A stretch of DNA of 64,000 nucleotides from Escherichia coli. Its GTDB lineage: Bacteria > Pseudomonadota > Gammaproteobacteria > Enterobacterales > Enterobacteriaceae. The stretch lies in NCBI RefSeq assembly GCF_009931435.1, contig NZ_CP043414.1; one strand, 5' to 3'. The position numbers and the translations under genes are program-made. The first letter of the stretch is position 1; each line of letters begins with the position of its first letter. Below the pieces are notes generated by a model. It saw only the letters and a list, made by a program, of their open reading frames with translations, made no database searches and was not told where the DNA came from. Below are positions 3,042-57,225 of the stretch, piece after piece.

Positions 3042-4019
3042 TTATTCAACGAGTATTGGCGATAACCAGTACAACATCGCCAGCCATACGATAAATCCGC
3101 CAGTTAATAATACCCCTACACCACGGCCCGGTTGCGGGGAGCGCCGCCAGCACAGCAACGCAAAAATAATGCTCACCAACAACATCACGCTGTAGTCACG
3201 GCTGTACGCCAGTGGATCAATCTCTCCAGGCGTTATCAGCGCGGGTAAACCCAACACGATGACAATATTAAAAATGTTTGCGCCAATGATATTCCCGACA
3301 GCAATGTCGTTTTCACCTTTGCGAACCCCCGCGATTGCGGTTGCCAGCTCTGGCAGACTGGTTCCGATAGCGATTGCCGTCAGACCCATCGTCAACTCGC
3401 TGATGGCAAAGTAATTCGCCAGCACCGTGGCGTTATCAACCACCATCCGCGTGGCCACTGGCATGATGATCAGCGCAATGCCGAGCCATAAAAACGCGAC
3501 GGGCAATCCGCCTTCACGCGGCAGCTCTGCAAGCTGCTCTCTGGTCAGGCTGTCAGTCCCCTGACGTTCAGCCAGACGTGCAAGTTTAACAATGAACAGC
3601 AGCCATAGCACAGCCAGAAAGAGGAGAAAGATACCATCGCTGCGACTAAGTTGTCCGTCATAGAGTACGGAACCGGCCACCACACTGACCAACAACATTA
3701 AGGGTAATTCGCGGCGCAGAACATCGGAATGGACGGTAAAAGGACGTACCAGCGCAGCCAGACCGAGGATCAGCAAAATATTGATAATGTTTGATCCGAG
3801 GGCTACACCAACGGCTAAATCGCGTTGTTCGTGCAGTGATGCGGCAAGCGAAACGATGATTTCTGGTAACGATGTGCCAATACTGACCACCGTCATGCCG
3901 ATGATCAGTGGCGGTATGCCAAAGGATCGGCAAAGAATGGACGCGGCAAATACCAGGCGGTCGGCACTGTAAACGACCAAAAGTAAACCAACAATTAACA
4001 GTGCCGTAGCTAAAAGCAT
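3042..4019 (-). CDS. yrbG: Ca2+/Na+ antiporter-family inner membrane protein YrbG
   Basis: 325 aa polytopic membrane ORF; conserved position between kdsD and mlaF. Confidence 0.9.
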   Translation of the reverse strand: MLLATALLIVGLLLVVYSADRLVFAASILCRSFGIPPLIIGMTVVSIGTSLPEIIVSLAASLHEQRDLAVGVALGSNIINILLILGLAALVRPFTVHSDVLRRELPLMLLVSVVAGSVLYDGQLSRSDGIFLLFLAVLWLLFIVKLARLAERQGTDSLTREQLAELPREGGLPVAFLWLGIALIIMPVATRMVVDNATVLANYFAISELTMGLTAIAIGTSLPELATAIAGVRKGENDIAVGNIIGANIFNIVIVLGLPALITPGEIDPLAYSRDYSVMLLVSIIFALLCWRRSPQPGRGVGVLLTGGFIVWLAMLYWLSPILVE

Positions 4020-15187: not shown

Positions 15188-15434
15188 AATCTCGCGCTAA
15201 CAACCTGGAATCGAGCCGTCATACTACGGCGCAACGCCCTATAAAGTAAACGATGACCCTGCGGGAACTTCAGGGTAAAATGACTATCAAAATGTGAATT
15301 GCAGCTGACCTGGGACTTGTACCCGGGTCGGTATTTTTTTGCTTCTGGTCCCGGTGAGGAGTTATGCCGGGCAGGCCGAACAGCTGGGGTGGGTGGAGAC
15401 TCGCCCCATCAGGAATATTCAAGAGGTATAACAA

Positions 15435-21990: not shown

Positions 21991-22077
21991 GCCGAGGTGG
22001 TGGAATTGGTAGACACGCTACCTTGAGGTGGTAGTGCCCAATAGGGCTTACGGGTTCAAGTCCCGTCCTCGGTACCA
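21991..22077 (+). tRNA. leuU: tRNA-Leu (anticodon GAG)
   Basis: GCCGAGGTGGTGGAATTGGTAGACACGCTACCTTGAGGTGGTAGTGCCCAATAGGGCTTACGGGTTCAAGTCCCGTCCTCGGTACCA; long variable arm; 14 nt after secG stop. Confidence 0.95.
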
Positions 22078-25857: not shown

Positions 25858-25934
<77 letters not shown>

Positions 25935-26056
25935 CTTTCCCTTAGAGTCCTTTTTCAAATATACTGTGAAGACTTCGGCCTTCGTAGTGGGATTTGAAAA
26001 AATCCTTCTGGAAAGTGCTCCAGACCGCAGTTGCGGTTATAGGGTTCAGTTATATA

Positions 26057-26087
26057 AAGCCCCGATTTATCGGGGTTTTTTGTTATC
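26057..26087 (+). terminator. intrinsic terminator/attenuator between metY and rimP
   Basis: AAAGCCCCGATTTATCGGGGTTTTTTGTT. Confidence 0.75.
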
Positions 26088-26140
26088 TGACTACAGAATA
26101 ACTGGGCTTTAGGCCCTTTTTTTATGTCTTGGGGGTGGGC

Positions 26141-26620: not shown

Positions 26621-28108
<1,488 letters not shown>

Positions 28109-28132
28109 TAAACTGTAGCAGGAAGGAACAGC

Positions 28133-30805
28133 ATGACAGATGTAACGATTAAAACGCTGGCCGCAGAGCGACAGACCTCCGTGGAACGCCTGGTACAGCA
28201 ATTTGCTGATGCAGGTATCCGGAAGTCTGCTGACGACTCTGTGTCCGCACAAGAGAAACAGACTTTAATTGACCACCTGAATCAGAAAAATTCAGGCCCG
28301 GACAAATTAACGCTGCAACGTAAAACCCGCAGCACCCTTAACATTCCTGGTACCGGTGGAAAAAGCAAATCGGTACAAATCGAAGTCCGCAAGAAACGCA
28401 CCTTTGTGAAACGCGATCCGCAAGAGGCTGAACGCCTTGCTGCGGAAGAGCAGGCGCAGCGTGAAGCGGAAGAGCAAGCCCGTCGTGAGGCAGAAGAATC
28501 GGCCAAACGCGAGGCGCAACAAAAAGCTGAACGTGAGGCCGCAGAACAAGCTAAGCGTGAAGCCGCTGAACAAGCGAAACGTGAAGCTGCGGAAAAAGAC
28601 AAAGTGAGCAATCAACAAGACGATATGACTAAAAACGCCCAGGCTGAAAAAGCCCGCCGTGAGCAGGAAGCTGCAGAGCTCAAGCGTAAAGCTGAAGAAG
28701 AAGCGCGTCGTAAACTCGAAGAAGAAGCACGTCGCGTTGCTGAAGAAGCACGTCGTATGGCGGAAGAAAACAAATGGACTGATAACGCGGAACCGACTGA
28801 AGATTCCAGCGATTATCACGTTACTACTTCTCAACATGCTCGCCAGGCAGAAGACGAAAGCGATCGTGAAGTCGAAGGCGGCCGTGGCCGTGGTCGTAAC
28901 GCGAAAGCAGCGCGTCCGAAGAAAGGCAACAAACACTCTGAATCAAAAGCTGATCGTGAAGAAGCACGCGCAGCAGTACGTGGCGGTAAAGGCGGGAAAC
29001 GTAAAGGTTCTTCGCTGCAGCAAGGCTTCCAGAAGCCAGCTCAGGCCGTTAACCGTGACGTTGTGATTGGCGAAACCATCACCGTTGGCGAACTGGCGAA
29101 CAAGATGGCGGTTAAAGGTTCTCAGGTCATCAAAGCGATGATGAAACTGGGCGCAATGGCAACCATCAACCAGGTTATCGATCAGGAAACCGCACAGCTG
29201 GTTGCTGAAGAGATGGGCCACAAAGTTATCCTGCGTCGTGAAAACGAGCTGGAAGAAGCGGTAATGAGCGACCGTGACACGGGTGCTGCGGCTGAACCGC
29301 GCGCGCCGGTTGTGACCATCATGGGTCACGTTGACCACGGTAAAACCTCTTTGCTGGACTACATTCGTTCAACGAAAGTGGCCTCTGGCGAAGCGGGCGG
29401 CATTACCCAGCACATTGGTGCATACCACGTTGAAACTGAAAACGGCATGATCACCTTCCTGGACACCCCGGGGCACGCCGCGTTTACTTCAATGCGTGCA
29501 CGTGGTGCGCAGGCAACGGACATCGTAGTCCTGGTTGTTGCTGCCGACGACGGCGTAATGCCGCAGACCATCGAAGCAATTCAGCACGCGAAAGCGGCAG
29601 GCGTGCCGGTTGTGGTTGCAGTGAACAAGATCGACAAACCAGAAGCCGATCCAGATCGCGTTAAGAACGAACTCTCTCAGTACGGCATCCTGCCGGAAGA
29701 GTGGGGCGGTGAAAGCCAGTTCGTACACGTGTCTGCGAAAGCAGGTACCGGTATCGATGAACTGCTGGACGCTATCCTGTTGCAGGCAGAAGTTCTGGAA
29801 CTGAAAGCGGTACGTAAAGGTATGGCGAGCGGTGCGGTTATCGAATCCTTCCTCGATAAAGGTCGTGGTCCGGTTGCTACTGTTCTGGTACGTGAAGGTA
29901 CTCTGCACAAGGGCGACATCGTTCTGTGTGGTTTCGAATACGGTCGTGTTCGCGCAATGCGTAACGAAATGGGTCAGGAAGTGCTGGAAGCAGGTCCGTC
30001 CATTCCAGTTGAAATCCTTGGCTTGTCCGGTGTTCCGGCTGCGGGTGACGAAGTTACCGTAGTGCGTGACGAGAAGAAAGCTCGTGAAGTTGCACTGTAT
30101 CGTCAGGGCAAATTCCGTGAAGTTAAACTGGCACGTCAGCAGAAATCGAAACTCGAGAACATGTTTGCCAACATGACTGAAGGCGAAGTTCACGAAGTGA
30201 ACATCGTTCTGAAGGCAGACGTTCAGGGTTCCGTGGAAGCGATCTCCGACTCCTTGCTGAAACTGTCTACTGACGAAGTTAAAGTGAAGATCATCGGTTC
30301 TGGCGTAGGTGGTATCACCGAAACCGACGCTACCCTGGCTGCGGCGTCCAACGCCATCCTGGTTGGCTTCAACGTACGTGCTGATGCCTCTGCACGTAAA
30401 GTGATTGAAGCGGAAAGCCTGGATCTGCGTTACTACTCCGTCATCTATAACCTGATCGACGAAGTGAAAGCGGCGATGAGCGGTATGCTGTCTCCGGAAC
30501 TGAAACAGCAGATTATCGGTCTGGCGGAAGTTCGTGATGTGTTCAAATCACCGAAATTTGGTGCCATCGCAGGTTGTATGGTTACTGAAGGTGTGGTTAA
30601 ACGTCACAATCCGATCCGCGTTCTGCGCGACAACGTGGTTATCTACGAAGGCGAGCTGGAGTCCCTGCGCCGCTTCAAAGATGACGTTAACGAAGTCCGT
30701 AACGGTATGGAATGTGGTATCGGCGTTAAGAACTACAACGACGTCCGCACTGGCGATGTGATCGAAGTATTCGAAATCATCGAGATCCAACGTACCATCG
30801 CTTAA
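28133..30805 (+). CDS. infB: translation initiation factor IF-2
   Basis: 890 aa; G-domain GHVDHGKTS; N-terminal [12 protein letters not shown] repeats. Confidence 0.97.
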
Positions 30806-30820: not shown

Positions 30821-30896
30821 ATGCGGGATAAGGCGTTTACGCTGCATCCGGCATGGATTGCCTGATGCGACGCTGGCGCGTCTTATCAGGCCTACG
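30821..30896. repeat. REP pair (BIME) between infB and rbfA
   Basis: inverted copies of the GCCTGATGCGACGC...CTTATCAGGCCTAC REP motif. Confidence 0.8.
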
Positions 30897-30968
30897 TGAA
30901 CAGCCCTTCCACCTGAAATTAATTTTAAAAAGGGGCTAACAGCCCCTTTTTTGTCAGGAGAATTTATT

Positions 30969-32366: not shown

Positions 32367-32732
<366 letters not shown>

Positions 32733-32747: not shown

Positions 32748-32778
32748 GAAAAGGGGCCTGAGTGGCCCCTTTTTTCAA
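32748..32778 (+). terminator. rpsO intrinsic terminator
   Basis: GAAAAGGGGCCTGAGTGGCCCCTTTTTTCAA. Confidence 0.88.
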
Positions 32779-32977
32779 ACTGACGGCAGCAATTCACTGG
32801 AAACTAATGTATTGTTGCTATGAATGATCTTCCGTTGCAGAGGTTCGCGCGGCTAATGAGAGGCTTTACCCACATTGGGCTGGGTTAGGGTTGTCATTAG
32901 TCGCGAGGATGCGCAGAAGATCGGGTATTAACACCAGTGCCGTAAGGTGCTGTCTAAGAAAGAGAAAGGATATTACA

Positions 32978-39579: not shown

Positions 39580-39672
39580 GTGCCTTATCCGACATTTCTG
39601 CTGCCTACACAATGCCTGATGTGCTTCGCTTATCAGGCCTACGTAGGACAGCGTTGCCAGCTCGGATAAGGC
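39580..39672. repeat. REP/BIME cluster downstream of mtr
   Basis: GCCTGATGTGCTTCGCTTATCAGGCCTACG plus flanking GCCTTATCCGAC / CGGATAAGGC copies. Confidence 0.75.
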
Positions 39673-45289: not shown

Positions 45290-45935
<646 letters not shown>

Positions 45936-46007
45936 TTATTCCCAAGAATTGATAGTGAGCGTAATATTCACGCGCTCAATTATCATAACTTATTCCTGGG
46001 GAATGCT

Positions 46008-47048
46008 ATGACTGGTCAGTCTTCATCTCAGGCGGCAACGCCCATTCAGTGGTGGAAACCCGCGCTTTTCTTTCTCGTTGTCATTGCTGGTCTCTGGTAT
46101 GTGAAATGGCAACCTTACTACGGCAAAGCGTTTACCGCCGCCGAAACTCACAACATCGGTAAATCAATACTCTCACAGGCGGATGCTAATCCGTGGCAGG
46201 CGGCGTTGGATTACGCGATGGTCTATTTCCTCGCGGTATGGAAAGCGGCGGTGCTGGGAGTGATCCTCGGGTCGTTGATTCAGGTGCTGATCCCTCGTGA
46301 CTGGCTGCTACGCACGCTTGGGCAATCGCGCTTTCGCGGCACGCTGCTGGGAACGCTGTTTTCGCTGCCGGGCATGATGTGTACTTGCTGTGCGGCACCG
46401 GTCGCGGCGGGGATGCGTCGCCAACAGGTGTCGATGGGCGGGGCGCTGGCATTCTGGATGGGCAATCCGTTGTTAAACCCGGCGACGCTGGTGTTTATGG
46501 GTTTTGTCCTCGGCTGGGGCTTTGCGGCGATTCGTCTGGTGGCGGGACTGGTGATGGTGTTGCTGATTGCGACCCTGGTGCAAAAATGGGTGCGTGAAAC
46601 ACCGCAAACACAGGCACCGGTCGAAATTGACATGCCGGAAGTGCAGGGCGGATTCTTTAGCCGCTGGGGTAGGGCGCTATGGACGCTTTTCTGGAGTACG
46701 ATCCCGGTATATATCCTTGCCGTACTGGCGTTGGGTGCTGCTCGCGTCTGGTTATTCCCCCATGCCGATGGTGCTGTCGATGACAGCCTGATGTGGGTGA
46801 TTGCGATGGCGGTAGCGGGATGCTTGTTTGTCATTCCCACGGCAGCAGAAATTCCGATTGTACAAACGATGATGCTGGCAGGTATGGGAACCGCTCCGGC
46901 GCTGGCATTGTTGATGACGCTTCCTGCTGTAAGTTTGCCGTCGCTGATAATGTTGCGTAAAGCGTTCCCGGCGAAAGCCTTATGGCTGACGGGTGCGATG
47001 GTGGCGGTGTCTGGTGTGATTGTCGGCGGGCTGGCGCTGTTGTTCTGA
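46008..47048 (+). CDS. yraQ: inner-membrane permease-family protein YraQ
   Basis: 346 aa polytopic ORF. Confidence 0.9.
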   Translation: MTGQSSSQAATPIQWWKPALFFLVVIAGLWYVKWQPYYGKAFTAAETHNIGKSILSQADANPWQAALDYAMVYFLAVWKAAVLGVILGSLIQVLIPRDWLLRTLGQSRFRGTLLGTLFSLPGMMCTCCAAPVAAGMRRQQVSMGGALAFWMGNPLLNPATLVFMGFVLGWGFAAIRLVAGLVMVLLIATLVQKWVRETPQTQAPVEIDMPEVQGGFFSRWGRALWTLFWSTIPVYILAVLALGAARVWLFPHADGAVDDSLMWVIAMAVAGCLFVIPTAAEIPIVQTMMLAGMGTAPALALLMTLPAVSLPSLIMLRKAFPAKALWLTGAMVAVSGVIVGGLALLF

Positions 47049-47062
47049 TTTGAGGGAAAACA

Positions 47063-47239
47063 TGTCGGATGCGGCGTAAACGCCTTATCCGACCTACGGT
47101 TTGCATCGTTGCAGGCCTGATAAGACGCGGCAAGCGTCGCATCAGGCAACGGCAGTCGGATGCGGCGCAGGCGCCTTATTCGACCTACGGTTTGTGTCGT
47201 GTAGGCCTGATAAGACGCGGCAAGCGTCGCATCAGGCAT
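47063..47239. repeat. tandem BIME: two ~91 bp units each carrying two REP motifs
   Basis: unit 47065-47147 and near-identical unit 47156-47237 (TCGGATGCGGCG...GCCTGATAAGACGCGGCAAGCGTCGCATCAGGCA). Confidence 0.85.
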
Positions 47240-47251
47240 TACAAGGTGCTG

Positions 47252-47827
47252 CTATTTAATAAACGTAAACGCTGTGGTTACACGTTTTACGCCGCTCACC
47301 CGACTGGCAATATCTGCCGCCGCTTTCGCTTCACGTTCAGTCACCAGCCCCATCAGGAACACTTCACCATTTTCAGTGGTCACTTTCACGTTGGAGGATT
47401 TCACCAGATCGCTGGTTAACAGCTGCGAACGCACTTTGGTGGTGATCCACGTATCGTTAGACGCTTCGCCCAGACCAATCGGCTGGCCCTGACGAATCTC
47501 GTTATACACTTCGTTGGCACCGTCTACGCCCATAGCAATCTGTTTGGCGCGAGCCGAAAGTTCAGCGTTTGGTGACTGCCCAACCAGCAGCACTTTGCCC
47601 TGATAGGCCGTTACATTAATGCGAGCTTCTTTCTTGATTTGTTCGTCTTTCGACAATGCGCTGTTCACGCGCACTTCCAGGGTTCCATCGTCCACCTGGG
47701 TGCCGACACTGCGTGGGTCAGTTGCGGCTTTTGTACCCACAGCCGCGGTGCCCACTACGGCGGCAGCAACGCAACCTTGCAACAGCAGTGCGGAAATAAG
47801 GACTGCGATTGGCGATAATGCCTTCAT
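47252..47827 (-). CDS. dolP: BON-domain outer-membrane lipoprotein DolP (YraP)
   Basis: 191 aa; lipobox LLLQGC. Confidence 0.93.
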   Translation of the reverse strand: MKALSPIAVLISALLLQGCVAAAVVGTAAVGTKAATDPRSVGTQVDDGTLEVRVNSALSKDEQIKKEARINVTAYQGKVLLVGQSPNAELSARAKQIAMGVDGANEVYNEIRQGQPIGLGEASNDTWITTKVRSQLLTSDLVKSSNVKVTTENGEVFLMGLVTEREAKAAADIASRVSGVKRVTTAFTFIK

Positions 47828-47836
47828 GTATTCTCC

Positions 47837-48427
47837 TTAAACATCCTGGTGAGGGAAAAGCGTGTTATCGATCAGATCGCACAAGCAATTTACCGTCAGC
47901 ATATGCATTTCCTGAATGCGAGCACTACGATGCGAAGGAATGCGGATCTCCACATCCTGTGGCCCTAACAACCCTGCAAGTTCACCGCCGTCATAGCCAG
48001 TCAATGCCACAATGGTCATATCACGCGTAACAGCAGCTTCTACTGCTTTTACGATATCGCGGCTGTTGCCACGGGTGGAAATGGCTAACAACACATCTCC
48101 CGCATGCCCCAGCGCCCGCACTTGTTTTGCATACACTTCATCATGTAAGCGATCGTTGGCAATCGCCGTTAAGACAACATTATCAGTATTTAGTGCAATG
48201 GCAGGTAAGCTGGGCCGCTCCGTTTCGAATCGGTTGATCATGCTGGCAGCAAAATGCTGTGCGTTGGCAGCGGAAGTTCCATTACCACAACAGAGGATTT
48301 TGTTGCCATTGAGCAGAGACTGAACCAGCGTCATGGCTGCACGGGAGATGGCATCCGGAAGCGCCTCTGCTGCCGCAATTTGAGTTTGAATGCTTTCAGT
48401 GAAGCAAGCTTTAATTCGTTCTTGCAC
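47837..48427 (-). CDS. diaA: DnaA initiator-associating protein DiaA
   Basis: 196 aa SIS-domain [30 protein letters not shown]. Confidence 0.93.
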
Positions 48428-48446
48428 GCTAATCCTTAAACCTTAA

Positions 48447-48842
48447 TTATGAGTGGTCATTAAAGGCATCCTTAATCCACTCAACTTCATTCCCGGTGAA
48501 GGCTACCACATCGAACCGGCAATCCACAGTATCAAAACTCCCATTATGACGCGCGAGCCACAAGCGGGCAGTCTGTAATAATTTGTGTTGTTTGCTGCGG
48601 GTCACACTGGCTGCCGCACCACCGTAAAGGGCTGAGCGGCGGTAACGCACCTCGACAAAAACGGTGGTCCTGCCTTCACGCATTATCAGATCGATCTCGC
48701 CGCCACGCTCGTTCACGTTAGCGGCGACAAACCGCAGTCCTTTGCTCTCCAGCCAGCGACGCGCTTGTGCTTCCCACGCATCGCCGGTCTGTTTAGTGGT
48801 TAACTGGCGGGGACTACCTGACCTTGTTGGTACTGTAGCCAT
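48447..48842 (-). CDS. yraN: UPF0102 family protein YraN
   Basis: 131 aa [43 protein letters not shown]. Confidence 0.88.
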
Positions 48843-50836
48843 GATAACTTCCTGTTAATTACGCAATCCGGGTTAGCCGTCAGACTTCCGGTATTACCGT
48901 TGATTTCGAAACCCTGAACCTGGCGCATTTGTGAGAAATGATTTGCCAACGACCAGGCATCAACGCCCATCGCATACATGCGAGCCAGCGAATAATCGTT
49001 ATTCACCGCACTGAGCGCCTGCTGCATTAATGGCAGATTACCGCCCGCCAGCATCGGGATTTCGCTATATTGCAAACCTTCCATTTCCAGACGGAAATCC
49101 GGACCCGCGGTGCCTTGTGCGCTTCGGGAGCTTGCGTACAGCGTTGCACCGCTCTGGCTACCGTTACGCATGGCGATCATCGGTTTGATAAAAGCGATTT
49201 CACCCGGCGTTGCCACAATGTACACCGCATCGACACGACCGCCATTATTGGTGAACTGGTCATAGGTTGGCGTGGTTTGCAGCATTGGATTGTTGGTCGT
49301 TATGCCTGAATCGGTTGTCGCTCTGGGAGTAATCGGGCTACCGGTTAAAGCGATACCAGAACCACCGTTAACTCCCGCGCGTAATTCGCTGGTGGAACCA
49401 AATTTTTGTTGCAAAACGGTACCGCCGCCCAGCTTCTGCCACTCTTGCGCAAACGCATTGGCTACGCGATCGCCCAGCGAACTGCGAGGGATCAGCACCA
49501 GTGGCGCTTGTTTACCCTGGTCACGAATATGACGCGCTGCATCGCGCGCTTCGTCTTCCGGTGAAAGCGCGAAGTAACAAATATTGACGCGGTTTTCGAT
49601 ATTTTCCGGCTGGTTCAGTGCCAGCACGTTCAGCGGGGTGTTGCTTTTCAGTAACTCTTCAACGTTATTTTTCAGCAACGGACCGACCACAATACTCGCG
49701 CCATCCTGCTGAACCTGGTTGAGGATCTGGCTAAGCGGTTGTGATGAGGTATCATAAATTTTCAGCTCTGCGGATGGATTCGCGGGGGCGCTTACCGCCG
49801 CAGTGTTTGCCGCCGGGGCGCTTACAGGCACTGGTTGAGCCGCGGTTTCTTCGCCTGTCAGATCGCTAACCGAGGCTTGTGCCGGGCTGGCAACGCCGTC
49901 AACAGTTTGCTGCTGGGGTTGTTCTGCAACGTCTGCGATTGGTGCGGCAGTTGCCTGTGCCGCCACTGGCTGAGTGCCGATATTTTTCGCCGCTTCAAAG
50001 CCTTGCTGAATAGTGCGGCCAAATACTGCGGCCTGACCATTCAACGGCAATAACAGGGCTATTTTGTTGGTTGACGCTGGTTTAAATGCTTTTACGTTTA
50101 CCAACTGCGTAGGCAGCATTTTCGCGCCCGGGTTGTTCGGATAACGTTTCTGCCAGTCGGCGATCCCAGCTTTCATCATGTCGGGATCGTTACGGTTATC
50201 AAACCAGACGCGCTGCAGATCAAGCCAGCCTTGCAGAATATTTTCGTCGGCGTTGATCACCAGCGTATTCGCCTGGTCCTGAGTCATGGAGGAGAGTGCC
50301 TGCCATGTAGCATCAATATTCTGTTGCTTTTCTTTCGCGCCGAGCAGGGGTTCCTGAGCAATTAAGGCGCGCAGTAAATCAATGGAAGGACGCCCCTGAC
50401 TGGCATCGATTTTTGCCTGCCAGTAACGCGCCTGCTGGTTTTGATCTAAATCGGCAGGTGTGATTTTCGCCAGCAGGGTTTGTGCGCCAGCAAAATCTTT
50501 CTGCGCCAGCTTAATTTCTACTGCCAGAAGAGTTTTCTCGCGACGCTGGTAATCGTTCAGTTCCTGCGGCAGCTGGTTAAACAGCTCCACCGCCTGCCCG
50601 GTTTTACCTTCTTTCACCAGTGCACGAATGGCGAGTAATTGCCAGTTGATCCTGGTATCATCAGCGCTTTGCTGCATCTGCTGAAGATAAAAGGCAGAAT
50701 CAGCCTGCGCCGTGCCCTGCATATAGGCAGTGGACTGATCGGGAGTATGGGTGCCACAACCGGCGAAAATCAGGGCTGCCAGAACAACAGGCAGACAACG
50801 CGCGGCTTTCAAACGAGAAAATGTTGAGGGTACCAT
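48800..50836 (-). CDS. lpoA: PBP1A activator lipoprotein LpoA
   Basis: ORF 48800..50866 trimmed to [30 protein letters not shown] (lipobox); 678 aa; 3' end overlaps yraN start by 43 nt. Confidence 0.9.
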
Positions 50837-57099: not shown

Positions 57100-57146
57100 G
57101 GAAGCGGCGTACCGTAGAGCGGATAAGACGCGCCAGCGTCGCATTC
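57100..57146. repeat. partial REP element in agaA-agaS intergenic region
   Basis: GGATAAGACGCGCCAGCGTCGCAT REP-like half. Confidence 0.5.
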
Positions 57147-57225
57147 GACACCACTGCACAGATTAAAACGAAAGAAAAAGAAAGGCCTTACGGGGGAAGT
57201 GAAGGCCCAATAAAGGAGCAAACCA

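Follow-up and report, generated by a model that had tools for sequence, protein, structure and literature searches.

BIME-2 elements are built of z2 and y units with a short linker and occur in multiple tandem copies whose number varies between strains; BIME-1 elements are single-copy, combine a z1 unit with a long L linker and often carry an IHF site (Ton-Hoang et al., PMC3333891). REP325 has been explicitly described as Y and Z2 repeats (Qian et al., PMC4550694). TnpA-REP was reported to cleave and recombine BIMEs in vitro, for which the GTAG foot is needed (PMC3333891). Gyrase cleavage is enriched in BIME-2, mostly within the y REPs (PMC6379681), and a topological-barrier role has been ascribed to BIME-2 (PMC10592627). 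REPs located 15 nt or less from a stop codon lower translation, according to Liang et al. 2015 as quoted in PMC12306157.

In the present study, a stretch of 64,000 nucleotides of Escherichia coli DNA (hereafter the window) was analysed, and its yraQ-dolP array has been shown to consist of two tandem 91-bp BIME-2 units, a non-coding and non-autonomous repeat of the REP/palindromic-unit family. The element is of a known kind, at a known locus and with a known type of polymorphism, and its functions are taken from those of the family. The reading as a whole, which joins the BIME-2 anatomy, the 3'-end and gyrase roles that the family would confer and a multi-unit ancestry followed by contraction, is very probably correct.

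Results

Structure and setting of the array

The original prediction had described head-to-tail units of about 91 bp with few substitutions between yraQ and dolP, each containing an inverted REP pair, and had proposed a self-comparison for the periodicity. Tandem Repeats Finder reported a single array at 47064-47238 with a period of 91, 1.9 copies, 90% matches, 1% indels and a score of 294. A repeat search of the array returned two direct-repeat blocks spaced by 91 and 90 nt, along with a 14+14-nt inverted repeat within every one of the four palindromic units, and each 91-bp repeat was found to hold a Y unit and an inverted Z2 unit. Unit 1 and unit 2 differ by 7 substitutions and 1 single-base indel over 85 aligned columns. 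REP-type patterns matching the array units were expected by chance 0.00 times, as judged from 100 shuffles of the window.

According to the ORF table, yraQ occupies 46008-47048 on the + strand (stop codon TGA at 47046-47048) and dolP 47252-47827 on the - strand (stop codon TAG, the complement of 47252-47254); both names were confirmed by the RefSeq annotation of near-identical genomes. The two genes are convergent and the intervening spacer of 203 bp is filled by the array, which is extragenic as it lies between the two stop codons. Since 14 independent complete genomes each have one exact unit-to-unit junction of the window type, and a further 307 a variant of it, the array is not an assembly artefact. 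The parts of the spacer are as follows.

47049..47063, + strand: spacer of 15 nt from the yraQ stop codon to the first hairpin, taken from the sequence and ORF coordinates; identical in K-12-like and other E. coli alleles
47064..47097, + strand: Y unit no. 1; hairpin 47064-47093, CTAC tail 47094-47097, GTAG foot on the - strand
47098..47110, no strand: tail-to-tail linker no. 1, GGTTTGCATCGTT, 13 nt, at the S-linker position, taken from the sequence
47111..47148, + strand: Z2 unit no. 1, inverted relative to Y; hairpin 47115-47147, foot GCAG instead of GTAG (47111-47114)
47114..47185, - strand (dolP sense): head-to-head module of Y no. 2, linker and Z2 no. 1; full-length match to RF02564
47149..47154, no strand: head-to-head linker ACGGCA, 6 nt, joining units 1 and 2, taken from the allele alignment; absent in one-unit alleles
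47155..47188, + strand: Y unit no. 2, GTCGGATGCGGCGCAGGCGCCTTATTCGACCTAC; hairpin 47155-47184, CTAC 47185-47188
47189..47200, no strand: tail-to-tail linker no. 2, GGTTTGTGTCGT, 12 nt, taken from the sequence
47201..47238, + strand: Z2 unit no. 2; intact GTAG foot 47201-47204, hairpin 47205-47237
47239..47251, - strand: spacer of 13 nt from Z2 no. 2 to the dolP stop codon, taken from the sequence and ORF table

Y unit 1 (GTCGGATGCGGCGTAAACGCCTTATCCGACCTAC), which is made up of GTCGGATGCGGCGTAAACGCCTTATCCGAC followed by CTAC, matches the published Y consensus GCCGGATGCGGCGTGAACGCCTTATCCGGCCTAC of PMC12306157 at 31 of 34 positions, and the C2-to-T change in its stem is paired with a G-to-A change in the opposite arm. 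Its predicted RNA hairpin has an energy of -18.4 kcal/mol on the + strand and -17.4 on the - strand. For Y unit 2 the values are -15.5 kcal/mol on the + strand and only -10.5 on the - strand, which is the dolP strand; the weakness there is due to the T at 47180, a C-to-T change at a conserved REP position that is missing from the closest genome, MFDS1022581. Z2 unit 1 (GCAGGCCTGATAAGACGCGGCAAGCGTCGCATCAGGCA), composed of GCAG, GCCTGATAAGACGCGGCAAGCGTCGCATCAGGC and a final A, differs from the Z2 of K-12 REP325 (GTAGGCCTGATAAGACGCGCAAGCGTCGCATCAGGCA) only in having an additional loop base and in the T-to-C change in GTAG. Z2 unit 2 is identical to Z2 unit 1 from 47115 on, and the hairpin energies are -20.4/-20.5 kcal/mol for both. 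Thus, apart from Y unit 2 on the dolP strand, single-unit hairpins range from -15.5 to -20.5 kcal/mol on either strand. The foot change from GTAG to GCAG (47112) in Z2 unit 1 is common to MFDS1022581 and is also found in one E. albertii unit, and the GTGTCG signature of linker 2 recurs in unit 2 of the Ec-042-T0 and E105 alleles, which also have two units. A hairpin stem begins 15 nt past the stop codon in the yraQ transcript and 14 nt past it in the dolP transcript.

Three open reading frames overlapping the array were considered for coding potential and set aside as apparent repeat by-products or as antisense to yraQ. Those at 47069-47419 and 47101-47259 on the + strand begin in the array and look like by-products of the GC-rich repeat. 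The 319-aa frame at 46280-47239 on the - strand begins inside the BIME and runs antisense through yraQ.

Assignment to the BIME-2 class

Every sequence feature that defines BIME-2 was found in the array, and none of those specific to BIME-1. The two Y-type units (47064-47097 and 47155-47188) are each accompanied by a Z2 unit in the opposite orientation (47111-47148 and 47201-47238), having the long inner stem GACGC/GCGTC as in published Z2. The Z units also fit the Z2 consensus that flanks the E. coli RAYT gene (Nunvar et al., PMC2817692), and their assignment to z2 and not z1 was made by comparison with labelled examples (K-12 REP325 and this RAYT-flanking consensus) and not with the original consensus figure. 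The REP/iREP linkers are short, being 13 and 12 nt. The GTAG/CTAC foot is present in three of the four units, and each of the four predicted hairpins has an unpaired or mismatched position in its interior. The repeat also belongs to a dispersed family, with other palindromic units at 30822-30895, 39614-39642 and 57114-57150 in the window, and E. coli genomes have a median of 9 places matched by a 601-bp query centred on the array.

The earlier claim that such arrays bind gyrase and IHF has to be divided. IHF binding would be the job of the array if it were a BIME-1 (RIB/RIP) element, and it does combine a Y unit with a Z-class unit of inverted orientation, which is also true of BIME-1. However, the array is tandemly repeated whereas BIME-1 is single-copy, its linkers are of 12-13 and 6 nt as against a long conserved L linker carrying the IHF site, and the IHF consensus WATCAANNNNTTR has no match anywhere in 47000-47300. 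The BIME-1 reading is almost certainly wrong, and with it falls the IHF part of the claim, IHF binding being a BIME-1 property. The gyrase part may be kept as a family property of BIME-2; as the element is a BIME-2, gyrase and not IHF would be the relevant partner.

Hairpins and transcription signals

Compared with shuffled sequences, the fold of the whole spacer has a z of -5.3 on the + strand and -5.1 on the - strand. No hairpin followed by a U-tract was found by scanning 47049-47251 on either strand, and no sigma-70-like promoter was found in the yraQ-dolP spacer. The terminator scan bears on the proposal that the array is a bidirectional intrinsic (Rho-independent) terminator for both convergent genes. 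Such a function would suit its position, and Kosakonia and similar relatives have a textbook A-run/hairpin/T-run terminator at the same place, but on neither strand does a U-run follow any of the four hairpins. This function is exceedingly unlikely for the array, which is better described by its BIME-2 anatomy.

Among 16 units from nine genomes, 95% of cells were paired, with 0 pairs changed on both sides in either hairpin, and the variation in the Y stem was one-sided or disruptive. No selection for hairpin structure has been detected in this 16-unit covariation test. Regarding the published data, no entries for yraQ, yraP or dolP were found in the examined supplements of the gyrase Topo-Seq paper, the supplements of PMC12306157 do not mention yraQ or dolP, and a literature search on yraQ, dolP and REP returned only unrelated 'DoLP' optics papers.

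Copy number across E. coli

The sample comprised 5,426 complete E. coli genomes, of which 5,425 were matched by a 601-bp query across the locus. The query spanned 510-511 bp in most genomes instead of 601, showing that most genomes have one unit. Alignment separated three allele classes: alleles with two units, K-12-like alleles with one, and alleles in which a 121-bp spacer of unrelated sequence takes their place. When junctions were counted by a 50-nt probe across the unit-to-unit junction, the window type was found in 14 of 5,426 genomes and the Ec-042 type (ACAGCA) in 307, which gives at least 321 two-unit genomes (at least 5.9%). More than one junction per genome was seen in 0 of 5,426, so none has three units of these junction types. 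The unrelated spacer occupies the locus in 429 genomes (7.9%), and by subtraction about 86% have one unit.

The expectation that copy number varies between strains, for which a comparison with other E. coli genomes had been suggested, was thus borne out: one unit is the commonest state, two are present in at least 321 genomes and the BIME is lacking in 429, the range being 0, 1 or 2 units in E. coli and 4 in E. albertii. As 429 E. coli genomes (8%) are without a BIME at the locus, the array is dispensable.

The alternative 121-bp spacer (E. coli SCU-313, extracted locus 500-620; E. coli E69) is without REP and holds a GC-rich palindromic repeat, CCCCTCTCCCCTTTGGGGAGAGGG with TTAGGGTGAGGGG, the core of which recurs as a dispersed repeat at a median of 6 places in each genome. 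Presumably, this repeat resembles boxC. Similar motifs were observed in the same spacer of Enterobacter sp. ENT03 and Phytobacter massiliensis.

At the locus (45350-48950, 3.6 kb) the window shares about 95% identity with K-12, and about 94-96% across yraR-lpoA; its nusA-infB segment (27500-29000) reaches at least 99% identity in only 18 of 5,426 genomes. On these identities, the E. coli lineage to which the window belongs is rare and divergent, and may be cryptic-clade-like. The genomes closest to it include MFDS1022581, R32_14_1F and RMDEC465.

The locus in other species

Within Escherichia, the scan of species-representative genomes covered E. albertii and two genomes labelled E. coli. In E. 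coli SCPM-O-B-8794 there are two units, 97% alike (2 differences), and the type strain of E. albertii (NBRC 107761) has four tandem 91-bp BIME-2 units downstream of dolP (extracted locus 3089-3446). The linker TGCCGT on the dolP strand, which equals ACGGCA, is present in SCPM-O-B-8794 and three times in E. albertii. In E. albertii, yraQ is a short 3' remnant and the next ORF, of 211 aa, is on the opposite strand.

Convergent dolP and yraQ were found in 26 further species. In 18 of these the spacer is of 35-66 nt with one GC hairpin, which in many cases is bordered by A- and T-runs to form a bidirectional terminator; in the remaining eight it is of 81-161 nt, and some of these spacers hold pairs of their own REP type. 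Such single hairpins and REP pairs at the same position in other genera point to the yraQ-dolP spacer as the common 3'-end region of both genes and as a recurrent site of REP landing or retention.

In Kosakonia and several Enterobacter-group species, the spacer, which follows dolP at about 3077-3140 of the extracted loci, is of 35-60 nt and has one hairpin between an A-run and a T-run, i.e. a bidirectional intrinsic terminator. The spacer hairpin of the Enterobacter cloacae group resembles one REP with a T-run after it.

Origin of the second unit

The ACGGCA linker is not derivable from the flanks of the one-unit allele, and it therefore does not arise by simply duplicating the one-unit state in place. 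A linker AC(G/A)GCA together with the GTGTCG signature in the second unit is common to two-unit alleles with different unit-1 backgrounds, and the yraQ-proximal unit shows 0-1 differences between two-unit and one-unit genomes. As E. albertii has four units and the same linker, the array probably has an old origin and underwent contraction in the majority of E. coli. We consider it probable that the locus was already multi-unit before the E. coli/E. albertii split and was reduced to one unit in most E. coli, with the direction taken from one outgroup genome. Units would have been lost in most E. coli by recombination between identical Z2 copies, the rare lineage of the window keeping two.

A recent duplication or RAYT-mediated amplification of the second unit, starting from a one-unit ancestor in the lineage of the window, is rather unlikely. 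It would agree with the single unit of most E. coli genomes and with the addition of BIME units by TnpA-REP in vitro, which published models describe as adding a unit with its linker (PMC3333891). The 97% likeness of the SCPM-O-B-8794 units is also expected after a recent gain, but equally after homogenisation; units within one genome tend to be more alike than orthologous units between genomes, as in SCPM-O-B-8794 with its 2 differences, and this is consistent with the reported homogenisation of BIMEs (PMC3333891). Against a recent gain, 8 of 85 positions differ between units 1 and 2 of the window, which is more than between orthologous units of different lineages; window unit 1 and the O157-like single unit, for example, show 1 difference. 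The linker and GTGTCG signature held in common across unit-1 backgrounds, as well as the four E. albertii units with the same linker, also speak for the older multi-unit state. Hence, the word 'duplicated' in the original prediction holds for the structure, i.e. two tandem units, and probably not for the history, as the shared linker and the four units of E. albertii fit contraction at least as well.

Match to the naRNA4 family

The head-to-head module on the - strand (47114-47185) matches the Rfam family naRNA4 (RF02564) with 64.6 bits against a gathering score of 59.5, covering model positions 1-77 of 77. The arrays of Ec-042-T0, SCPM-O-B-8794 and E. albertii score 64.6-68.3 bits, the three naRNA4-type junctions of E. 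albertii 56-68 bits, and the one-unit K-12-like locus 34.7 bits only. The head-to-head junction of Y2, ACGGCA and Z2 requires at least two units, and the lineages with the module are accordingly the rare E. coli lineage of the window, about 6% of E. coli genomes and E. albertii, which has three modules. A second match above the gathering score is located in the window at 30822-30892. As the Rfam model was built from a BIME-2, the match shows kinship and not function, and we read it as such and not as evidence of a small-RNA gene.

If the array were instead a naRNA4-like RNA gene, the Y-linker-Z2 module would be cut from the dolP 3' UTR, bind HU and help to condense DNA. The full-length match in the dolP sense orientation, with a score above the gathering threshold, the restriction of the module to multi-unit alleles (34.7 bits at the one-unit K-12-like locus) and the need of naRNA4 for two hairpins such as Y and Z2 (Qian et al., PMC4550694) are in line with this proposal. 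However, any head-to-head Y/Z2 pair scores with a BIME-2-derived model, as the other above-threshold match at 30822-30892 within the same 64 kb illustrates; the linker is of 6 nt as compared with about 11 nt in REP325, the spacer is without a promoter, and the module is missing at the locus in most E. coli. An RNA gene of this kind is very unlikely. A further conjecture, that multi-unit lineages could process the dolP transcript to an HU-binding nucleoid-associated RNA, with copy number serving as an on/off switch of the small RNA, is highly improbable. The match is better taken as one more sign of the BIME-2 family.

Other elements in the window

The palindromic units elsewhere in the window belong to the same REP family. 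The one at 30822-30895 is a head-to-head Y/Z2 pair just after the infB stop codon with a naRNA4 score of 73.5 bits on the + strand, and a canonical terminator with hairpin and T-run is located 3' of it, near 30929-30953. A short-form unit (TGCCTGATGTGCTTCGCTTATCAGGCCTAC) is found at 39614-39642 and a degenerate long-form unit (GTAGAGCGGATAAGACGCGCCAGCGTCGCATTCGAC) at 57114-57150. The other Rfam matches above the gathering score (15218-15339, 21991-22074, 25858-25931, 26023-26123, 32405-32519 and 32748-32919) are the greA leader, two tRNAs, the rimP leader, the S15 leader and the SraG sRNA, as expected for this chromosomal region.

Discussion

From what is known of the family, a possible course of events at this locus can be outlined. 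Both yraQ and dolP would be transcribed into the array, and either transcript would end in GC-rich hairpins without a U-tract. These hairpins may block 3'-to-5' exonucleases, whereby the mRNA 3' ends of both genes would be defined and stabilised. As the first hairpin lies within 15 nt of each stop codon, a damping of translation is possible, and the first hairpins may slightly lower the translation of the last codons of yraQ and dolP. On the DNA, the Y units may serve as preferred sites of gyrase binding and cleavage, which would suit a place where the positive supercoils of convergent transcription meet, and the array may act as a topological barrier. The direct repeats could recombine or slip and thereby change the copy number, which could also be altered by TnpA-REP/RAYT. 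Gyrase binding, mRNA stabilisation and translation damping are thus proposed for this locus by analogy with the family.

The outcome of the study is that the 203-bp yraQ-dolP spacer can be marked as repeat DNA and not as a gene or regulator, which is of little import beyond annotation, and that the attribution of IHF has been corrected. It also adds one more locus at which the BIME-2 copy number ranges from 0 to 4 across Escherichia. This variation could serve as a typing marker, and also as a natural allelic series in which the influence of BIME-2 dosage on gyrase activity nearby and on the 3'-end stability of the two convergent mRNAs could be followed.

Comparison with known systems

One of the known systems closest to the array is the orthologous one-unit locus of K-12, where the dolP-yraQ spacer is of 113 bp. 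Both have the same flanks, the same Y and Z2 units and the same distances to both stop codons, whereas the K-12 locus is without the ACGGCA linker, the second unit, the head-to-head junction and the above-threshold naRNA4 match.

REP325, the BIME-2 between yjdM and yjdN of K-12, has in common with the array the alternating opposed Y and Z2 units with short tail-to-tail and head-to-head linkers, the head-to-tail tandem arrangement, the extragenic position at gene 3' ends and the strain-variable copy number. The differences are of detail. The yraQ-dolP array repeats every 91 nt, REP325 every 100 nt. Head-to-head units are joined by 6 nt (ACGGCA) in the array and by about 11 nt in REP325, and the tail-to-tail linkers, which differ in sequence, measure 12-13 nt and 17 nt, respectively. 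The Y stem of the array has a T-A pair where the consensus has C-G, its Z2 loop is one base longer than in REP325, and it has 2 units in comparison to about 6. The nucleoid-associated RNA naRNA4 (CssrE), which comes from REP325, shares with the array the two hairpins, Y and then Z2, with a linker between them; in the array this linker is shorter, and the resemblance is due to a common repeat ancestry.

BIME-1 (RIB/RIP) elements likewise lie at gene 3' ends and combine a Y unit with a Z-class unit of inverted orientation, whereas their z1 unit, single copy and long L linker with the IHF site are not found in the array. The substrates of TnpA-REP/RAYT (yafM, 'REPtron') share with it the GTAG/CTAC foot, present in three of its four units, and the 2-nt internal stem mismatch needed by TnpA-REP, for which all four have an unpaired or mismatched position; Z2 no. 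1 of the array differs from these substrates in having GCAG and not GTAG.
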